Shown here in pieces: positions 1-23,884 of a stretch of DNA of 43,297 nt (positions are counted from its first letter, which is position 1; each line of letters starts with the position of its first letter). The position numbers and the translations under genes were made by a program. Below the pieces are notes generated by a model. It was not told the DNA's origin, made no database searches, and was given only the letters and a program-made list of their open reading frames with translations. Origin of the DNA: Spirochaetes bacterium GWB1_36_13 (lineage in GTDB: Bacteria > Spirochaetota > GWB1-36-13); NCBI GenBank assembly GCA_001829155.1, contig MIAO01000044.1, positions 1 to 43,297 on the forward strand. The letters run 5' to 3'.

Positions 1-54
1 TAAGAGAGTGGATTGAGGGGATGAGTTCAAAACTCTTTGAATCTTTTTTAAAAA

Positions 55-576
55 ATGCTATCTTTAATAGAAAGGGGAAACAAAAATAAATGTACATTAA
101 TCCGCTTTCTGACATTGTTTTTAAGCGAAAACTTCCAGATTCACTTTATTGAAGTGAAGAAGTATCAAAACAATCTCAATAAACTCAAGAAAACTTTAAA
201 TGACTGGGTCTGTTATTTCTTAAATGAAGGGAAAGATGAGGTAATCATGAAAACAGTTTTAGAACACAATCCGCTACTCAACAAAGTTCATCAGGAATAC
301 AAAAAATTCACTATGAACGATAAAATGAGAGAAATTTATGAATATCAGGAAAAAAAGCGGAAAGATGAAAAATCTTTAATCAACAGTTTTTATAAAAAAG
401 GGGTCAAAGAAGGGATCAATCAAGGAATCAAAGAAGGGGAAATCAAAGGAGAGAAAAAAGGAAAAATCGAAACAGCTCAAAATATGCTGAAAATGAAACT
501 GGATATTCAAACAATCCATCAGGCAACCGGGCTTTCGATTGAAGAAATCCAAAAAATCGTTTCAAAAGACCAATAA
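55..576 (+). pseudogene. Internally deleted copy of an Rpn/YhgA-family PD-(D/E)XK recombination-promoting nuclease/putative transposase. The N-terminal nuclease core is missing; the DUF4351-like C-terminus is retained.
   Basis: The 173-aa ORF matches the first ~15 and last ~160 residues of the full-length paralog at 1727..2641. It lacks the D...E.Q nuclease block. DNA upstream of both copies is near-identical (GATGAGTTCAAAACTCTTTGAATCTTTT...). Confidence 0.6.
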
Positions 577-619
577 TAATCTAAATGAACGGACATTGAG
601 CGGAGCCGAAATGTCTGAG

Positions 620-670
620 ATACTCACCCCTGACCCTTCTCTTTCTCAGTGAAGGGAATTGAGGGGATGA
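620..670. repeat. REP-like palindromic element (CCCTTCTCT-loop-AGAGAAGGG) followed by the conserved tail AATTGAGGGGATGAG.
   Basis: Same architecture and tail at 1..25 (partial), 1436..1503, 1676..1705 (partial), 2690..2745, 3383..3450 and 20163..20222. Confidence 0.6.
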
Positions 671-710
671 GTTCAAAATCGATAAACTTCATCATGAGAA
701 CCAATATCGA

Positions 711-905
711 TTAAAAGATTTCATCGTTTTCAATTTTAAGGAGAAGAATAATCCGGTATTCAAAATTCAAAGAGACCGCCCAGCAATCTCTTAGAACTCC
801 TTTTAATTTATGGAGTTTGAGAGCAGGATCTTTGTAATTTTCAAGTAACCGCTTCAAGACTTTTTTATATTCTTCGAATAAAGACGGTCGTTTTTTAAAA
901 ATTTC
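711..905 (-). pseudogene. Start-less remnant of a RelE/ParE-like toxin (about 64 codons).
   Basis: Minus-strand translation gives KRPSLFEEYKKVLKRLLENYKDPALKLHKLKGVLRDCWAVSLNFEYRIILLLKIENDEIF. This fits the RelE/ParE pattern (..nP...kLkG.l.g.wElRi.gdyRiiY). There is no in-frame ATG, and an in-frame TAA lies at 906..908. It sits downstream and co-directional with the DUF2281-like gene at 1112..1330. Confidence 0.25.
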
Positions 906-927
906 TTAACTCGTTTTATACGCAACT

Positions 928-1090
928 GAATTTAAATTGCAATTTTTTTATAAATCCAATTTGTCATTGTCCGGCTTGACCGGACAATCTATTGAATTGA
1001 TTATCTTTTTCTATAGATTCCCCGGTCAAGCCGTGGAATGACTTGGCTTATACTTCAATTTTTGCAATTTAAAATCATTTCAGTATATAT
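928..1090. mobile_element. MITE-like element. Terminal inverted repeats AATTTAAATTGCAA / TTGCAATTTAAAAT enclose two internal palindromes (ATTGTCCGGcttgaCCGGACAAT and CCCCGGTCAAGCCGTGG).
   Basis: Terminal inverted repeats are read directly at 928..944 and 1063..1080. A second, diverged copy of the same element lies at 23484..23640. No ORF. Confidence 0.45.
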
Positions 1091-1111
1091 AGGTTTGAGT
1101 AAGTATCAGTT

Positions 1112-1330
1112 TTATTTTTCGGATAATAAAGAATTAAAATGCTCATCTAGATCATTTTTATCTCCGATGACAGAAACAAAACCTTGTTTTATTTCTTTTA
1201 GACTTTCTTTGAATCTGGATTGTCTTTTGTTTTTTAATACTAGAAAATCTGTGAAATCAATTATTTCCAAAATCGATTGTTCAGACAAGTTTTTGAGTTT
1301 GCGAATCAATTTTTTCTGGATTAAAGTCAT
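1112..1330 (-). CDS. Small DUF2281-like protein (putative antitoxin).
   Basis: 72 aa, MTLIQKKLIRKLKNLSEQSILEIIDFTDFLVLKNK. This resembles the DUF2281 N-terminus (L.EKLR.LP.E.QQEVLDFVEFL..K). The plus-strand ORF 1038..1349 overlapping it is judged spurious. Confidence 0.35.
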   Translation of the reverse strand: MTLIQKKLIRKLKNLSEQSILEIIDFTDFLVLKNKRQSRFKESLKEIKQGFVSVIGDKNDLDEHFNSLLSEK

Positions 1331-1435
1331 TTACTTCCTCTTTATTTGATTAGTTATATTGAATGATTGTAAATTTAGTTCATTATATAAATAATAACTG
1401 AATTTTAAATCAAAGCCAAGAAAAAATAAAGTAAA

Positions 1436-1503
1436 GTCTTTCGGAACTCACCCCCTGACCCTACCCCCCTTTCTTTCCAAGAGAAGGGAATTGAGGGGAT
1501 GAG
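1436..1503. repeat. REP-like palindromic element with the ATTGAGGGGATGAG tail.
   Basis: CCCCCTTTCTTTCCAAGAGAAGGGAATTGAGGGGATGAG. Same family as 620..670. Confidence 0.55.
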
Positions 1504-1726: not shown

Positions 1727-2641
1727 ATGCTATCTTTTATACAAAGAGGAAAATTAAAAATGTACTTTAATCCGCTTTCTGACATTCTTTTTAAATACTT
1801 ACTCGGCAGGGAAGAAACCAAAGACCTGCTTTTGTCTTTTATCAATTCTGTCTTAGAAGACTCCGACCTTGAAACCATGCAGTCTCTTGAAATCAGAAAC
1901 CCTTTCAATCTCAAAGAGTTTAAAGCCGACAAAACCAGTATCTTGGACATCAAGGCAGTGGATAATAAAGGCAAGATTTACAATATCGAGGTGCAGAACA
2001 TCGGCGATGAAGTTTTTGTGAGCCGATCGCTTTACTACTGGGCAAAGCTTTATGCAGGTCAGCTTGAAGAATCTGAAGACTACACCAAACTCCAGCCTGT
2101 CATCTGCATCAATGTCCTAAATTTCGATCTTTTGGAAAAACCTGATCTTCTTCACAGCTGTTTTATGGCTTTTGACAAAAACGACAAAGACATTCTTTTA
2201 AGCGAAAACTTTCAGATTCACTTTATTGAAGTGAAGAAGTATCAAAACAATTTTAACAAACTCAAGAAAACTTTAAATGACTGGGTCTGTTATTTCTTAA
2301 ATGAAGGGAAAGATGAGGTAATCATGAAAACAGTTTTAGAACACAATCCGCTACTCAACAAAGTTCATCGGGAATACAAAAAGTTTACCATGGATGATAA
2401 AATGAGAGAAATTTATGAATATCAGGAAAAAAAACGGAAAGATGAGCAATCTTTAATCAACAGTTTTTATCATAAAGGCATCAAAGAAGGGGAAATTAAA
2501 GGAGAAATCAAAGGAAAGATTGAAGGAAAACTTGAAACGGCGAAAAACTTTTATCGTCTTGGACTTTCTATCGGGCAAATAGCTGAAGGTACAGGGCTTT
2601 CCATTGAAGAAATCCAAAAAATAATTTCAAAAGACCAATAA
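1727..2641 (+). CDS. Rpn/YhgA-family PD-(D/E)XK recombination-promoting nuclease/putative transposase, full length. The probable true start is the ATG at 1760 (MYFNPLSDILFKYL).
   Basis: N-terminal PD-(D/E)XK block (ILDIKAVDNKGKIYNIEVQN) and C-terminal DUF4351-like KGEIKGKIEGKLETAKNF..GLSIEEIQKI. A 306-aa paralog lies at 28632..29552. Confidence 0.75.
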   Translation: MLSFIQRGKLKMYFNPLSDILFKYLLGREETKDLLLSFINSVLEDSDLETMQSLEIRNPFNLKEFKADKTSILDIKAVDNKGKIYNIEVQNIGDEVFVSRSLYYWAKLYAGQLEESEDYTKLQPVICINVLNFDLLEKPDLLHSCFMAFDKNDKDILLSENFQIHFIEVKKYQNNFNKLKKTLNDWVCYFLNEGKDEVIMKTVLEHNPLLNKVHREYKKFTMDDKMREIYEYQEKKRKDEQSLINSFYHKGIKEGEIKGEIKGKIEGKLETAKNFYRLGLSIGQIAEGTGLSIEEIQKIISKDQ

Positions 2642-2689: not shown

Positions 2690-2745
2690 GGTGTTGAGAA
2701 CGCGCCCCTTCTCTATCTAAAAGGAAGGAATTGAGGGGATGAGAT
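2690..2745. repeat. REP-like palindromic element with the ATTGAGGGGATGAG tail. It is followed by a C11 homopolymer at 2747..2757.
   Basis: CCCCTTCTCTATCTAAAAGGAAGGAATTGAGGGGATGAG, then CCCCCCCCCCC. Confidence 0.55.
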
Positions 2746-20991: not shown

Positions 20992-23463
20992 TTAATTCCA
21001 GAGTTTAACGACTCCGCTTTTCAGACTGGCATTGAAATAGGTAAAAAGACCGCCGGCAGTGATCTTTCCATCTGCACCGATACGGACGCAAAGCACATTA
21101 GCATCCGCACCTGTTCCCGGATCAAAGCTGGTGTCCAGAGTTCCGTCTGTATTGATCCGGGCAATCCGGTTTCGGGCAGTACCCTTATAGTTGGTAAAAA
21201 CTCCGCCGATCACGATCTTGCCGTCAGACTGGACTGCTGCTGAAACAATTGTATTATCCGCGCCAGAAGTAAAAGCAGTTTCAAGTGCACCTGTTGAGGC
21301 ATTGATGAAAGCAATTCTCTGAGAAGCTGTTCCTTTGTAAGAAGTAAAATCTCCTACGACCACAATATTTCCGTTGGATAAAAGACTGATATCGTAAACA
21401 ATATCATTGAATCCTGTTCCGATACCTGTTGTAAAGGCAGAGTCGGGGGCTCCTTCGGAAGAGAGTTTTGCAATGCGGTTGACACTCGTTCCGTTATAAC
21501 TGGTAAAGGTTCCGCCGATCAAGATACTTCCATCTGTAAGGACTTCGATATCATTGACATCAATGTTGGTTCCGCCGGTTCCTGATCCGCCGTTGTTGAA
21601 GGCAGTATCCAGTGTTCCGTCAGAGTAGAGTCTTGCAATACCAGGTTTTGAGGTTCCGTTGTAGGTAGTAAAAGCCCCTCCGATCAGAATTTTTCCGGAT
21701 GAAAGCTGATAAAGGGCTGTCACCGTATTATTGGCAGCCGTTCCTGAATTAAAGCTTGTGTCTCTCGTTCCATCTGCATTGAGCCGGGTAAGATAGTTGA
21801 CGGTGGTTCCGTTGTAAGTGGTGAAATACCCTCCCACGAGAATTTTTCCGTCTGACTGGATTAAAAGTTCATAAACCGCATTGTCAAAACCGGTTCCAAC
21901 TGTAAAACTGGTATCCAGCGTTCCGTCTGTATTGATCCGGGCAATCCGGTTGATCGCCGTTCCCCTGTAGTTTAGAAAACTTCCCCCGATAATCACTTTG
22001 CCGTCTGACTGGACAGCCACTGCAAAAACAGAATCATCGGCACCCGCAGCCGAATCAAAAGCAGAAACCATAATGCCATCGGTGGTTTTGGATGTTTGAG
22101 TATAAACACTCTCATTTCCAGAACCGTCTTTGACCAGAACAGTATAGTAATAAGTCGTGCCGGCGGTCAGTCCAGTCAAGGCTTTGGTTGTCATATTCGT
22201 CTCATAACCCGTGCAGGTTTTGGTCTTAGCAGTCGTTACATCGTTTGTAAAACCTGCAGTCGAATAACAGACTTGATATTGAAGCGTATTGGCAGCATAA
22301 ACAGTATCGCTTGCAGCCGTCCAGTTCACTGTCAATCCTGTCTGGGTCACAGAAGAAGAAGTGAGCGCCGGCGTTCCCACGGTTGGTACTATTGTATCAT
22401 TTGCAGTGGTTTGAGAGTTTTTCGTATAAATACTCTTATTGCCCGCTGCATCTTTCACGACAACTGTATAATAATAGGTTGTGTTATTAGAAAGCCCTGT
22501 AATTGCCTGGCTGGTAATCCCGGAAGCATAGCTTCCAACAGCCGTTCCGTTGGCTTCGGCATCGGCTACAGTGCTGATATTGTCGCTGGTAGAAATATAG
22601 ACTAGATATTCCAAATTTGAGCTTCCTGTGGCATCATCGGCGGCAGCCGTCCAGTTCACTGTCAATCCGGTTGCAGACACACTTCCTGCAGTCAATCCGG
22701 GAGTCCCTACTGTAGGAGCCGTGCTATCGGTTCCGGTTTTTTGATTTCCAGTAGTGTAAATTGCTTCATTATCCGCCGCATCTTTGACTGAAACAGTATA
22801 ATAATAAGTTGTATTGTCATTGAGTCCTGTAACCGCTAAACTGGTCTCTCCCGGCCGATATCCTCCGTGAGGCACCCCGTTGGTTTTGGCATCAGTGACG
22901 GTTGTAATATTATTAGTGGTTGAAGTATAGACTTGATATTGAAGCGAATCACCGCCTGTGGCATCATCGCTAGCAGGCGTCCAATTCACTGTAAAGCCTG
23001 TAGATGAAGGGCTTGAAGCAGTGACGGAAGGAGCGGCTACCACGGGAGCCGTTGAGTCTGTGCCGGTTTTCTGGCTGGATTTGGTATAAACTGTCTTGTT
23101 CCCTTTGGAGTCTTTTACTACCACAGTATAATAATAAGTCTGCCCATCGGTCAAGCCGGTGACAGCCTGGCTGGTAATCCCTGCCGTATAGCTTCCGGCT
23201 GGAGTCCCGTTGTTTTGCGCATCGGCAACCGTTGTAATAGTGTCGCTGGTGGAATAATACACCCGATATTGCAGGTTTGTATCTGTATCCGTTGCAGCCG
23301 TCCAATGGACTGTAAATCCGCTTGCCGATGGAGTGGAAGCGTAGATTTTTGAGACCGAAAGCGTTGGGGCAGTAGAGTCAACCGTCCCGATATATTCCAG
23401 ATTCTGCTTATTGATACAAGCGAGCACTAAGAAGGGTAAAAGAAATAAAAATAGATTCTTCAT
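20992..23463 (-). CDS. Giant surface lipoprotein: four N-terminal FN3-like repeats plus C-terminal delta-60 repeat (DUF5122-type) beta-propeller. True start is the ATG at 23463.
   Basis: Lipobox LVLAC after MKNLFLFLLPF. RBS AAGGAG lies 6 nt upstream of 23463. The ORF-track extension to 23544 runs into the MITE-like repeat. FN3-like repeats as in 16652..20056. The repeats SDGKILVGG.FT.YNGT.....ARLN.DGTLDTSF match delta-60. Confidence 0.8.
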   Translation of the reverse strand: MKNLFLFLLPFLVLACINKQNLEYIGTVDSTAPTLSVSKIYASTPSASGFTVHWTAATDTDTNLQYRVYYSTSDTITTVADAQNNGTPAGSYTAGITSQAVTGLTDGQTYYYTVVVKDSKGNKTVYTKSSQKTGTDSTAPVVAAPSVTASSPSSTGFTVNWTPASDDATGGDSLQYQVYTSTTNNITTVTDAKTNGVPHGGYRPGETSLAVTGLNDNTTYYYTVSVKDAADNEAIYTTGNQKTGTDSTAPTVGTPGLTAGSVSATGLTVNWTAAADDATGSSNLEYLVYISTSDNISTVADAEANGTAVGSYASGITSQAITGLSNNTTYYYTVVVKDAAGNKSIYTKNSQTTANDTIVPTVGTPALTSSSVTQTGLTVNWTAASDTVYAANTLQYQVCYSTAGFTNDVTTAKTKTCTGYETNMTTKALTGLTAGTTYYYTVLVKDGSGNESVYTQTSKTTDGIMVSAFDSAAGADDSVFAVAVQSDGKVIIGGSFLNYRGTAINRIARINTDGTLDTSFTVGTGFDNAVYELLIQSDGKILVGGYFTTYNGTTVNYLTRLNADGTRDTSFNSGTAANNTVTALYQLSSGKILIGGAFTTYNGTSKPGIARLYSDGTLDTAFNNGGSGTGGTNIDVNDIEVLTDGSILIGGTFTSYNGTSVNRIAKLSSEGAPDSAFTTGIGTGFNDIVYDISLLSNGNIVVVGDFTSYKGTASQRIAFINASTGALETAFTSGADNTIVSAAVQSDGKIVIGGVFTNYKGTARNRIARINTDGTLDTSFDPGTGADANVLCVRIGADGKITAGGLFTYFNASLKSGVVKLWN

Positions 23464-23483: not shown

Positions 23484-23640
23484 TATATACTGAAATGATT
23501 TTAAATTGCAAAAATTTGACCGTTTTTTTTATTCTCTTTGTCATTCCCGCGAAGGCGGGAATCTATTGAAAATAAAATGATTAAATTACAAATTCCGGTC
23601 TTTTACAAGCAAAAACCGGAATGACAATTTTGCATTTTAT
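23484..23640. mobile_element. Second (diverged) copy of the MITE-like element: ATTTTAAATTGCAAAAAT ... TTGTCATTCCCGCGAAGGCGGGAATCTATTGAA ... ATTCCGGTCTTTTACAAGCAAAAACCGGAAT.
   Basis: 23484..23514 is the reverse complement of 1060..1090. Same internal hairpin-plus-CTATTGAA architecture as 928..1090. Confidence 0.45.
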
Positions 23641-23884
23641 ATTCAGCTCCGTATATAACCAGTGTTTCAAATCAGTATAAACACTGGTTTGAATTAAAAA
23701 TTAACCAAAATCGGGATTAACTTATTGTAGAATATAATCAAGTATCTGTCGTAATATTTTTACAAAATAAAAATGCCTATATATTTTACAATCAATTTTA
23801 TTTCAAAATTTAAAGAAAAAAATTAATTTTCAAATGGAAAATAATTATATTTAATTCAATAGTTTCCTTCACAAGGGGTCTTGA

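Follow-up and report, generated by a model that had tools for sequence, protein, structure and literature searches.

A YafQ/RelE-family toxin pseudogene with a MITE-like element inside its reading frame, next to an intact antitoxin-like gene, in an uncultured spirochaete

Organization of the locus

The stretch of DNA analysed here (the window) is the entire 43,297-bp contig of the metagenome-assembled genome (MAG) 'Spirochaetes bacterium GWB1_36_13', an uncultured groundwater spirochaete, and this work concerns a small toxin-antitoxin locus lying between its positions 673 and 1330. The locus consists of an antitoxin-like gene, which is intact, and of the broken gene of a YafQ/RelE-family toxin on the same strand, with a MITE (miniature inverted-repeat transposable element) inside the open reading frame (ORF) of the toxin. 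The original prediction for this DNA had placed the element exactly between the two genes; instead, the element interrupts the toxin ORF at codon 10, the first ten codons being found on its antitoxin side. The features of the locus are the following:

1382..1409, minus strand: TTTAAA-16-TATAAT, a promoter-like site lying upstream of the antitoxin gene (consensus scan, 10/12 matches; a pattern match only)
1112..1330, minus strand: intact antitoxin-like gene, 72 amino acids (aa), with an ATG and a Shine-Dalgarno-like AGAGGAAG upstream
1086..1115, minus strand: toxin pseudogene, codons 1-10 (IKLILTQTYI), read directly on the antitoxin side of the element
917..1087, minus strand: MITE, 171 bp including the TA at each end; homology between copies stops exactly at TATAC / GTATA
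673..916, minus strand: remainder of the pseudogene, from codon 11 to codon 91, with the stop (673..675), in three frames owing to two 1-nt deletions
891..896, minus strand: A6 homopolymer with an inferred -1 frameshift at about codon 20; with one A added, ..KRVKKFLK runs on into KRPSLFEEY.. at the spacing seen in the family, Y-x5-KKF-x-KK-x-P
713..716, minus strand: T4 homopolymer with a -1 frameshift at about codon 77, which shifts the conserved C-terminus IDIGSHDEVY out of frame, the motif lying in the next frame

The antitoxin-like gene had been described as a small DUF2281-like gene. The ORF is real, with its ATG and ribosome-binding site, but the domain assignment stays just below the Pfam threshold: the protein matches DUF2281 (PF10047) with E = 4.8e-5 and 24.3 bits, the cut-off being 26.5 bits, and the match aligns residues 7-44 with positions 1-38 of the profile (the N-terminal half). 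In NCBIfam the only match is a weak one, to TA_VapB (E = 0.0033). A homologue search in 5.8 billion clustered proteins returned no relative of the 72-aa protein besides the protein itself and, therefore, there is no orthologous locus to which this one can be compared through its antitoxin.

The toxin pseudogene

The original prediction recognised the toxin as a start-less RelE/ParE-like remnant at 711..905 (minus strand). The superfamily was correctly recognised, while the extent of the gene was not, since the toxin gene spans 673..1115. The 64-aa translation of the remnant (714..905, minus strand) scores below threshold in both Pfam and NCBIfam (best HigB-like, 17.2 bits, and RelE_StbE, 15.8 bits), and a word-indexed homologue search with it gave zero matches. 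From 1.84 billion representatives, an unfiltered search with phmmer retrieved 51 proteins at E <= 1e-3, the best with E = 1.6e-8; almost all are 60-111 aa long (three are longer, 450-1167 aa), and nine of the ten homologues that were scanned match Pfam YafQ_toxin. The block HKLKGvLrdcWavSLnfeYRII agrees with the family consensus, which bears out the earlier identification of the conserved G.L..CWA.SLNFEYRII block as the RelE core. In the alignment, remnant residue 2 pairs with homologue residue ~18 and the remnant stops ~10 residues before the C-termini of the homologues, most of which, among those read, finish with ..IDIGTHDEVY.

Both missing ends are present in the DNA. From one nucleotide ahead of the antitoxin stop, the sequence of the minus strand is ATA AAA CTG ATA CTT ACT CAA ACC TAT A, that is, IKLILTQTYI, with ATA as codon 1. 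The toxin looks start-less because its start position (1113..1115) reads ATA and because the insertion separates this start from the rest of the gene. On the far side of the element, frames B, A and C of 673..916 yield, respectively, KRVKKFLK, EIFKKRPSL...NDEIF* and LIDIGSHDEVYRF*, the last of these being the final 14 toxin codons (673..714), which lie just 3' of the apparent stop (711..713) and in the next frame. The toxin frame as it stands translates as IKLILTQTYIY*, ending two codons into the element. Four lesions are thus present: the MITE, the ATA at the start position and the -1 frameshifts at 891..896 and 713..716. A single open frame of ~85-95 aa with the C-terminal histidine/aromatic motif is absent, IGSHDEVY being encoded but out of frame, and the toxin gene is a pseudogene of the YafQ-like family rather than a functional member of it.

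A reconstruction was made by excising the element and keeping one TA, repairing the two 1-nt homopolymer deletions and changing ATA to ATG, which gives a 91-aa protein: MKLILTQTYIKRVKKFLKKRPSLFEEYKKVLKRLLENYKDPALKLHKLKGVLRDCWAVSLNFEYRIILLLKIENDEIFLIDIGSHDEVYRF. This sequence was scored with a hidden Markov model (HMM) of the family, built from 40 homologues picked from the matches to the remnant. The remnant only scores 82.8 bits, the remnant together with the C-terminal piece from the next frame 108.0 bits, and the full reconstruction, including the N-terminus from beyond the MITE, 124.9 bits, free of gaps over positions 3-91. The N-terminus gains 17 bits, and shuffles of its 14 residues (n=300) leave the score at 111.6 ± 1.8, with a maximum of 119.5; shuffles of the 13 C-terminal residues (n=300, scored on the full reconstruction) give 101.1 ± 1.5, with a maximum of 108.6. 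Two other ways of joining the pieces were rejected: an alternative without target duplication scores 113.8 bits, 11 lower, and carries an in-frame TAA at 906..908, and a 4-bp TATA duplication creates a stop at the junction.

As encoded, both peptides of the locus fall below their profile cut-offs, whereas the reconstructed toxin passes those of Pfam YafQ_toxin (PF15738; 31.5 versus 30) and of TIGR02385 RelE/StbE (28.3 versus 27.9). The word-indexed search that gave nothing for the remnant finds 51 homologues with the reconstruction, the best of them (P0053) having 60% identity across 98% of the length and the same MKLIL start. The solved structures nearest to it in sequence are Helicobacter pylori HP0892 and Escherichia coli RelE. 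Each residue that is invariant in the homologue alignment remains encoded (H46, G50, R65, D81-I-G-S-H85, V88 and Y89). By analogy with H50, H87 and F91 of YafQ, we take H85 and Y89 to be the predicted active-site residues; both of these putative catalytic residues are now out of frame.

The arrangement of the two genes is that of a type II operon, with two small co-oriented genes, the antitoxin first, and with the antitoxin stop and toxin codon 1 overlapping as ATAA (1112..1115). At the homologous loci, the two genes either touch or share 1 to 14 nt, with junctions reading ATGA (two loci), TAATG or adjacent. The genes upstream of the toxin homologues have varied N-terminal domains (several are Phd/YefM-like) and a common tail, (D/E)IKxG…(E)EHFxxL, and the C-terminal tail of the 72-aa protein, EIKQG…DLDEHFNSL, resembles the tails found upstream of six toxin homologues (a by-eye comparison, without statistics). 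The partial gene upstream of P0053 has the end ..NEDLKKHFESLEI*, and its overlap with the start of the toxin gene reads ATGA. If the ancestral junction was also ATGA, as these sequences suggest, one G to A change would have kept the antitoxin stop (TGA to TAA) and abolished the toxin start. The apparent pairing of a DUF2281-like with a YafQ-like protein would be an uncommon combination, which fits the known mix-and-match of antitoxin domains.

The sequence 673..1115 is identical in five assemblies (L034, L035, L036, L037 and L039), as well as in both copies of the locus present in L036, and a one-off error of assembly can therefore not account for the lesions. Additionally, all seven contigs with the antitoxin also carry the element wherever they extend to it. 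The contig L038 (JGI 3300025009, 1,096 bp) follows the window across the antitoxin and the MITE, with four differences in the distal part of the element, and runs into unrelated sequence at the element's far end; probably its assembly is chimeric at the repeat, or two MITE copies have recombined, and the contig was left out of the locus comparison.

The inserted element and its family

The element had been delimited as a 163-bp sequence with terminal inverted repeats at 928..1090. Its palindromic character goes well beyond chance, but its true span is 917..1087. The element proper is 167 bp long (919..1085), flanked by TA at 1086-1087 and at 917-918, and begins 24 nt past the antitoxin stop. 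It has imperfect terminal inverted repeats (end sequence TATACTGAAATGATTTTAAATTGCAA) and a nested inner palindrome, GTCATTCC..GGAATC / ..AATGAC. The predicted RNA fold is a single end-to-end hairpin of -65.7 kcal/mol, compared with -26.7 +/- 3.7 for shuffled sequences (z = -10.7; z = -10.9 for DNA). The element thus has the characteristics of a MITE, being short and non-coding, with terminal inverted repeats and arms that pair end to end. At gathering thresholds Rfam has no match for it; the generic hairpin matches obtained at permissive thresholds (microRNA precursors, U5 and WsnRNA46, far under the cut-offs) were rejected as non-specific. A plasmid collection had no match for this copy either.

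The exact 23-mer of the element's left end is common to 33 metagenome loci. In 335 kb of related metagenome DNA there are ~50 element sites, 18 of which are unique full-length sites with the exact 23-mer; the same 23-mer has no match in species-representative genomes, a collection which apparently does not include this MAG or its relatives. The copy closest to that of the toxin gene, with 97.1% identity, sits at an unrelated site (L003/L004). The family is modular, with common outer ends and with inner nested palindromes and right ends that vary. Most of the other copies lie in non-coding DNA, several of them a few to ~20 codon-lengths upstream of a gene start. To this previously undescribed, TA-targeting family, the present work gives boundaries, copy number and target site.

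The target site is defined by several observations. TA is outermost at both ends in 17 of the 18 unique full-length sites, with no longer direct repeat flanking them. The L003 copy is inserted in another repeat of ~90 nt, and six element-free paralogues of this repeat carry a single TA at the corresponding place, the lengths being equal with one TA kept. The reading frame of the toxin also fits a duplicated TA, by 11 bits relative to no duplication. Together, the paralogous empty sites and the reading-frame fit therefore support a 167-bp element with a 2-bp TA duplication. The duplication would be typical of an IS630/Tc1-mariner-like mobilising transposase, a candidate superfamily to which only the TA target points.

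The window holds a second copy of the element:

23486..23655, plus strand: second MITE copy, with 33 nt of one end identical to the first copy; boundaries from family comparison

Its outer ends are as in the first copy, and its inner hairpin module is different. A large lipoprotein-like gene with fibronectin-type-III repeats has its likely ATG at 23463, and this copy ends 22 nt upstream of it. The start of the longer, mechanically assigned ORF of the gene (23544) falls inside the MITE; the promoter of this gene must lie in or beyond the MITE copy. The ~90-nt dispersed repeat mentioned above (…AAATATCAATGATAACAAGG…TTTTCAATAATCGACAGCCTGA) is also present in the window, at 30217..30304, with a partial inverted copy at 30096..30117; it has at least six copies at ~80% identity or more (L009, L012, L018, L027 and L031), and no Rfam match at gathering thresholds. 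A 2.8-kb contig from a 'Candidatus Saccharibacteria' bin (L065, SRP050083) contains a full copy of the spirochaete MITE, with the outer end TATACTGAAATGGTTTTAAATTGCAA, and is probably mis-binned.

The inner module of the second copy has a wider distribution. This 30-nt hairpin module, GTCATTCCCGCGAAGGCGGGAATCTATTGA (window 23541..23570), has 28 exact matches (loci L052-L079) in species-representative genomes of distant lineages: MAGs of Gamma- and Alphaproteobacteria, a 'delta proteobacterium', Ca. Roizmanbacteria and Patescibacteria (Candidate Phyla Radiation), Zixiibacteriota, the complete genome of Marivirga tractuosa (Bacteroidota) and a MAG without classification, which has 12 of the loci. 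In most cases, the near reverse complement of the module follows it, and in some genomes it is found inside elements with different outer inverted repeats. The plasmid collection gave one weak Legionella match to it, and no match for its sequence or its translations was found in the literature searched. It is conceivable, though we consider it doubtful, that the MITE family is built as a mosaic, with an inner nested-palindrome module that spreads as a unit of its own. If so, a tiny hairpin cassette would be moving, or being captured, across phyla and recruited by local MITEs, the insertion in the toxin gene being one visible consequence; this module is the only aspect of the locus that might merit separate study.

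Genomic neighbourhood

The toxin-antitoxin locus is flanked by two genes for Rpn-type PD-(D/E)XK (PDDEXK_2) proteins, at 55..576 and 1727..2641, which are paralogues ~81% identical to each other. The latter is intact and the former lacks the N-terminal nuclease half, matching only profile positions 141-227. In the independent scaffold L036, the unit formed by the antitoxin, the toxin pseudogene with its MITE and the Rpn gene is present twice, with 99.8% identity between the copies, which points to a duplication in tandem, or to a repeat resolved in different ways by the assemblers.

A different repeat, similar to repetitive extragenic palindromic (REP) sequences, surrounds these genes:

623..678, no strand assigned: REP-like repeat of ~50 nt directly 3' of the toxin stop; direct repeat D1, 80% identical to 1444..1503

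The partner copy (1444..1503) is upstream of the promoter-like site of the antitoxin gene, so that the two copies bracket the cassette. The core of this imperfect palindrome, GGGAATTGAGGGGATGAG, occurs four times in the window (0.06 expected), at sites that are all in the first 2.8 kb (8..25, 623..678, 1444..1503 and 2726..2743), bracketing each Rpn gene as well as the toxin-antitoxin cassette; the toxin stop codon is itself inside one copy. Additionally, a short hairpin, GGACATTGAGCGGAGCCGAAATGTC, is located at 591..615, in the interval that separates the first Rpn gene from the end of the toxin, and recurs next to MITE copies in L007 and L028 with compensating changes in the stem (GGTCATTGAGCGGAGCCGAAATGACC; GGTCACTGAGCGGAGCCGAAGTGAC).

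Origin of the pseudogene and alternative explanations

Based on these results, we read the locus, with a probability of roughly 0.85, as a chromosomal type II toxin-antitoxin operon in which the antitoxin is intact and the YafQ/RelE-family toxin is a pseudogene, with a MITE inside its ORF at codon 10 and three further lesions. The gene identities, the boundaries and copy number of the element, its position inside the ORF and the reproducibility of the lesions are shown by the analysis. The ancestral operon would have encoded an antitoxin with a DUF2281-like N-terminal domain and a toxin-binding tail, followed by a YafQ/RelE-family mRNA-interferase toxin overlapping it as ATGA. At some point, a 167-bp non-autonomous transposon would have inserted at a TA in codon 10, duplicating this TA, ending translation two codons into the element (…TQTYIY*) and giving the transcript a hairpin of -66 kcal/mol. 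The change of ATGA to ATAA by a single G to A substitution would have removed the toxin start and retained the antitoxin stop, one base would have been lost from the A-run near codon 20, and the loss of another from the T-run near codon 77 would have put the predicted catalytic C-terminus (IGSHDEVY) out of frame. With its ORF, ribosome-binding site and promoter-like site intact, the antitoxin may survive as an orphan.

Several points weigh against this reading. The reconstruction requires that two 1-nt repairs and one base change be assumed, and the members of the HMM were chosen via the remnant, so that only the N- and C-terminal gains count as independent evidence. No orthologous intact or element-free allele was found in the databases searched, and the pre-insertion sequence is thus a reconstruction. 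The TA duplication relies on paralogous empty sites of ~80% identity and on the frame fit, and the TA could instead belong to the ends of the element. No ORF for a transposase with matching ends was found beside the single-end copies (L012, L025 and L028). Finally, some of the five assemblies may stem from overlapping read sets of a single field site.

The alternative that survives best concerns the order of events rather than the nature of the locus: the toxin may already have been dead, through loss of its start codon or a frameshift, when the MITE arrived as a neutral hit in a pseudogene, for which we would offer slightly worse than even odds. The three independent inactivating lesions beside the MITE favour such an order, as do the youth of the element, apparent in its 97.1% identity to another copy, and the location of most copies in non-coding DNA just upstream of gene starts, as if insertions into functional sequence had been purged. 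Nevertheless, the events are unordered, homopolymer slips are fast mutations that could equally post-date the insertion, and the fact that every family-invariant residue is still encoded indicates that the decay is, overall, recent. The MITE can therefore not be named as the inactivating event; that it inactivated the toxin is one possibility only. The original prediction thus went too far in suggesting that the insertion decoupled, and so inactivated, the toxin, given that the element is inside the ORF and that there are three other independent lesions. It was right in dating the activity of the MITE family to after the acquisition of the toxin-antitoxin genes, since the insertion post-dates the toxin gene.

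It is improbable that the element is not a transposon at all, and instead a structural repeat of the REP or bacterial interspersed mosaic element (BIME) kind, an integron attC site or a terminator, spread by recombination. Besides the missing transposase noted above, such an origin would accommodate the modularity of the family (interchangeable inner hairpins and variable right ends), the presence of one inner module inside other elements in unrelated phyla and the bracketing of the cassette by a different, REP-like repeat. However, a transposon is what the discrete and identical boundaries at no fewer than 18 unrelated sites point to, together with the terminal inverted repeats, the TA on both sides (17/18), the paralogous empty site with exactly one TA at the junction and the splitting of an ORF. 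Furthermore, the copies are dispersed rather than arrayed. An attC site was specifically rejected, as the ends (TATACTG…/…GCGTATA) lack the core sites RYYYAAC/GTTRRRY, the two copies in the window are 22 kb apart and an ORF is interrupted; an intrinsic terminator was rejected in the absence of a T-tract.

Equally hard to sustain, and least credible together with the one that follows, is the version originally proposed, in which a MITE between the two genes uncoupled their translation and by itself silenced a start-less toxin at 711..905. It is true that the element starts just 24 nt past the antitoxin stop and that, upstream in the 711..905 frame, the stop at 906..908 is reached before any start codon. 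The homologues, however, are ~90 aa long and extend past 711..905 by ~17 residues at the N-terminus and 10 at the C-terminus; the N-terminus found on the antitoxin side fits the family (+17 bits, with MKLIL in common with P0053); the homologous genes abut or overlap, leaving no spacer to insert into; and the three further lesions are present. As for the frameshifts and the ATA being sequencing or assembly errors in a toxin broken by the MITE only, both frameshifts do fall in homopolymer runs, but runs of 4-6 nt are normally not error-prone in short-read metagenomes, and the identity of 673..1115 across five assemblies and both L036 copies makes this very unlikely.

We thus return to a toxin-antitoxin operon whose toxin gene has decayed, with a MITE among its lesions. 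For annotation, the locus should be given as an orphan antitoxin and a YafQ/RelE-family toxin pseudogene with a MITE, and not as two genes around an intergenic repeat. The locus illustrates neatly how a chromosomal toxin gene decays with its antitoxin persisting. It bears on no open question of toxin-antitoxin biology, being a case of ordinary gene decay in which both parts are of well-known kinds.

Comparison with known systems

In its general plan, the locus resembles YafQ-DinJ and RelE-RelB of E. coli and HP0892-HP0893 of H. pylori, which also have a RelE-fold toxin of ~91 aa whose gene follows directly on that of a small antitoxin, the stop of one overlapping the start of the other. The conserved motifs that the toxins have in common are H..L.G, YR and, at the C-terminus, GSH..(Y/F), and the reconstruction matches the sequences of HP0892 (4nrn/2otr) and RelE (4fxe), being only distantly similar to these solved proteins (E ~4e-4). 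Unlike in those systems, the toxin is here a pseudogene, and the N-terminal domain of the antitoxin is DUF2281-like and not a ribbon-helix-helix domain as in DinJ and RelB. The closest toxin homologues also differ from the window locus in this respect, since they pair mostly with Phd/YefM-type antitoxins.

DUF2281 proteins are documented as antitoxins of PIN/VapC toxins (PMC4963859; PMC12654330), with the examples ssl0385, ssl2138 and ssr8013 of Synechocystis PCC 6803 and one marine pair that was shown to be functional (PMC4963859; PMC12654330) and in which the gene order is inverted (PMC12654330). These VapC/DUF2281 pairs are similar to the present one in having a small DUF2281-type antitoxin upstream of the toxin; they differ in the partner, which is PIN/VapC there and YafQ/RelE-like here, and the DUF2281 score of our protein is below the cut-off.

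Regarding the element, the RUP elements insert at TA, are thought to be mobilised by IS630-Spn1 and inactivate the genes that they enter (PMC2229807). RUP and Correia elements are both, like the family described here, non-autonomous elements of 100-170 bp with terminal inverted repeats and long hairpins, present in many copies that are mainly intergenic and occasionally disrupt a gene. Correia elements, too, duplicate TA on insertion. The present family has no sequence similarity to either and belongs to another host phylum; no parent insertion sequence was found for it, and it is set apart from both by its unusual modularity.

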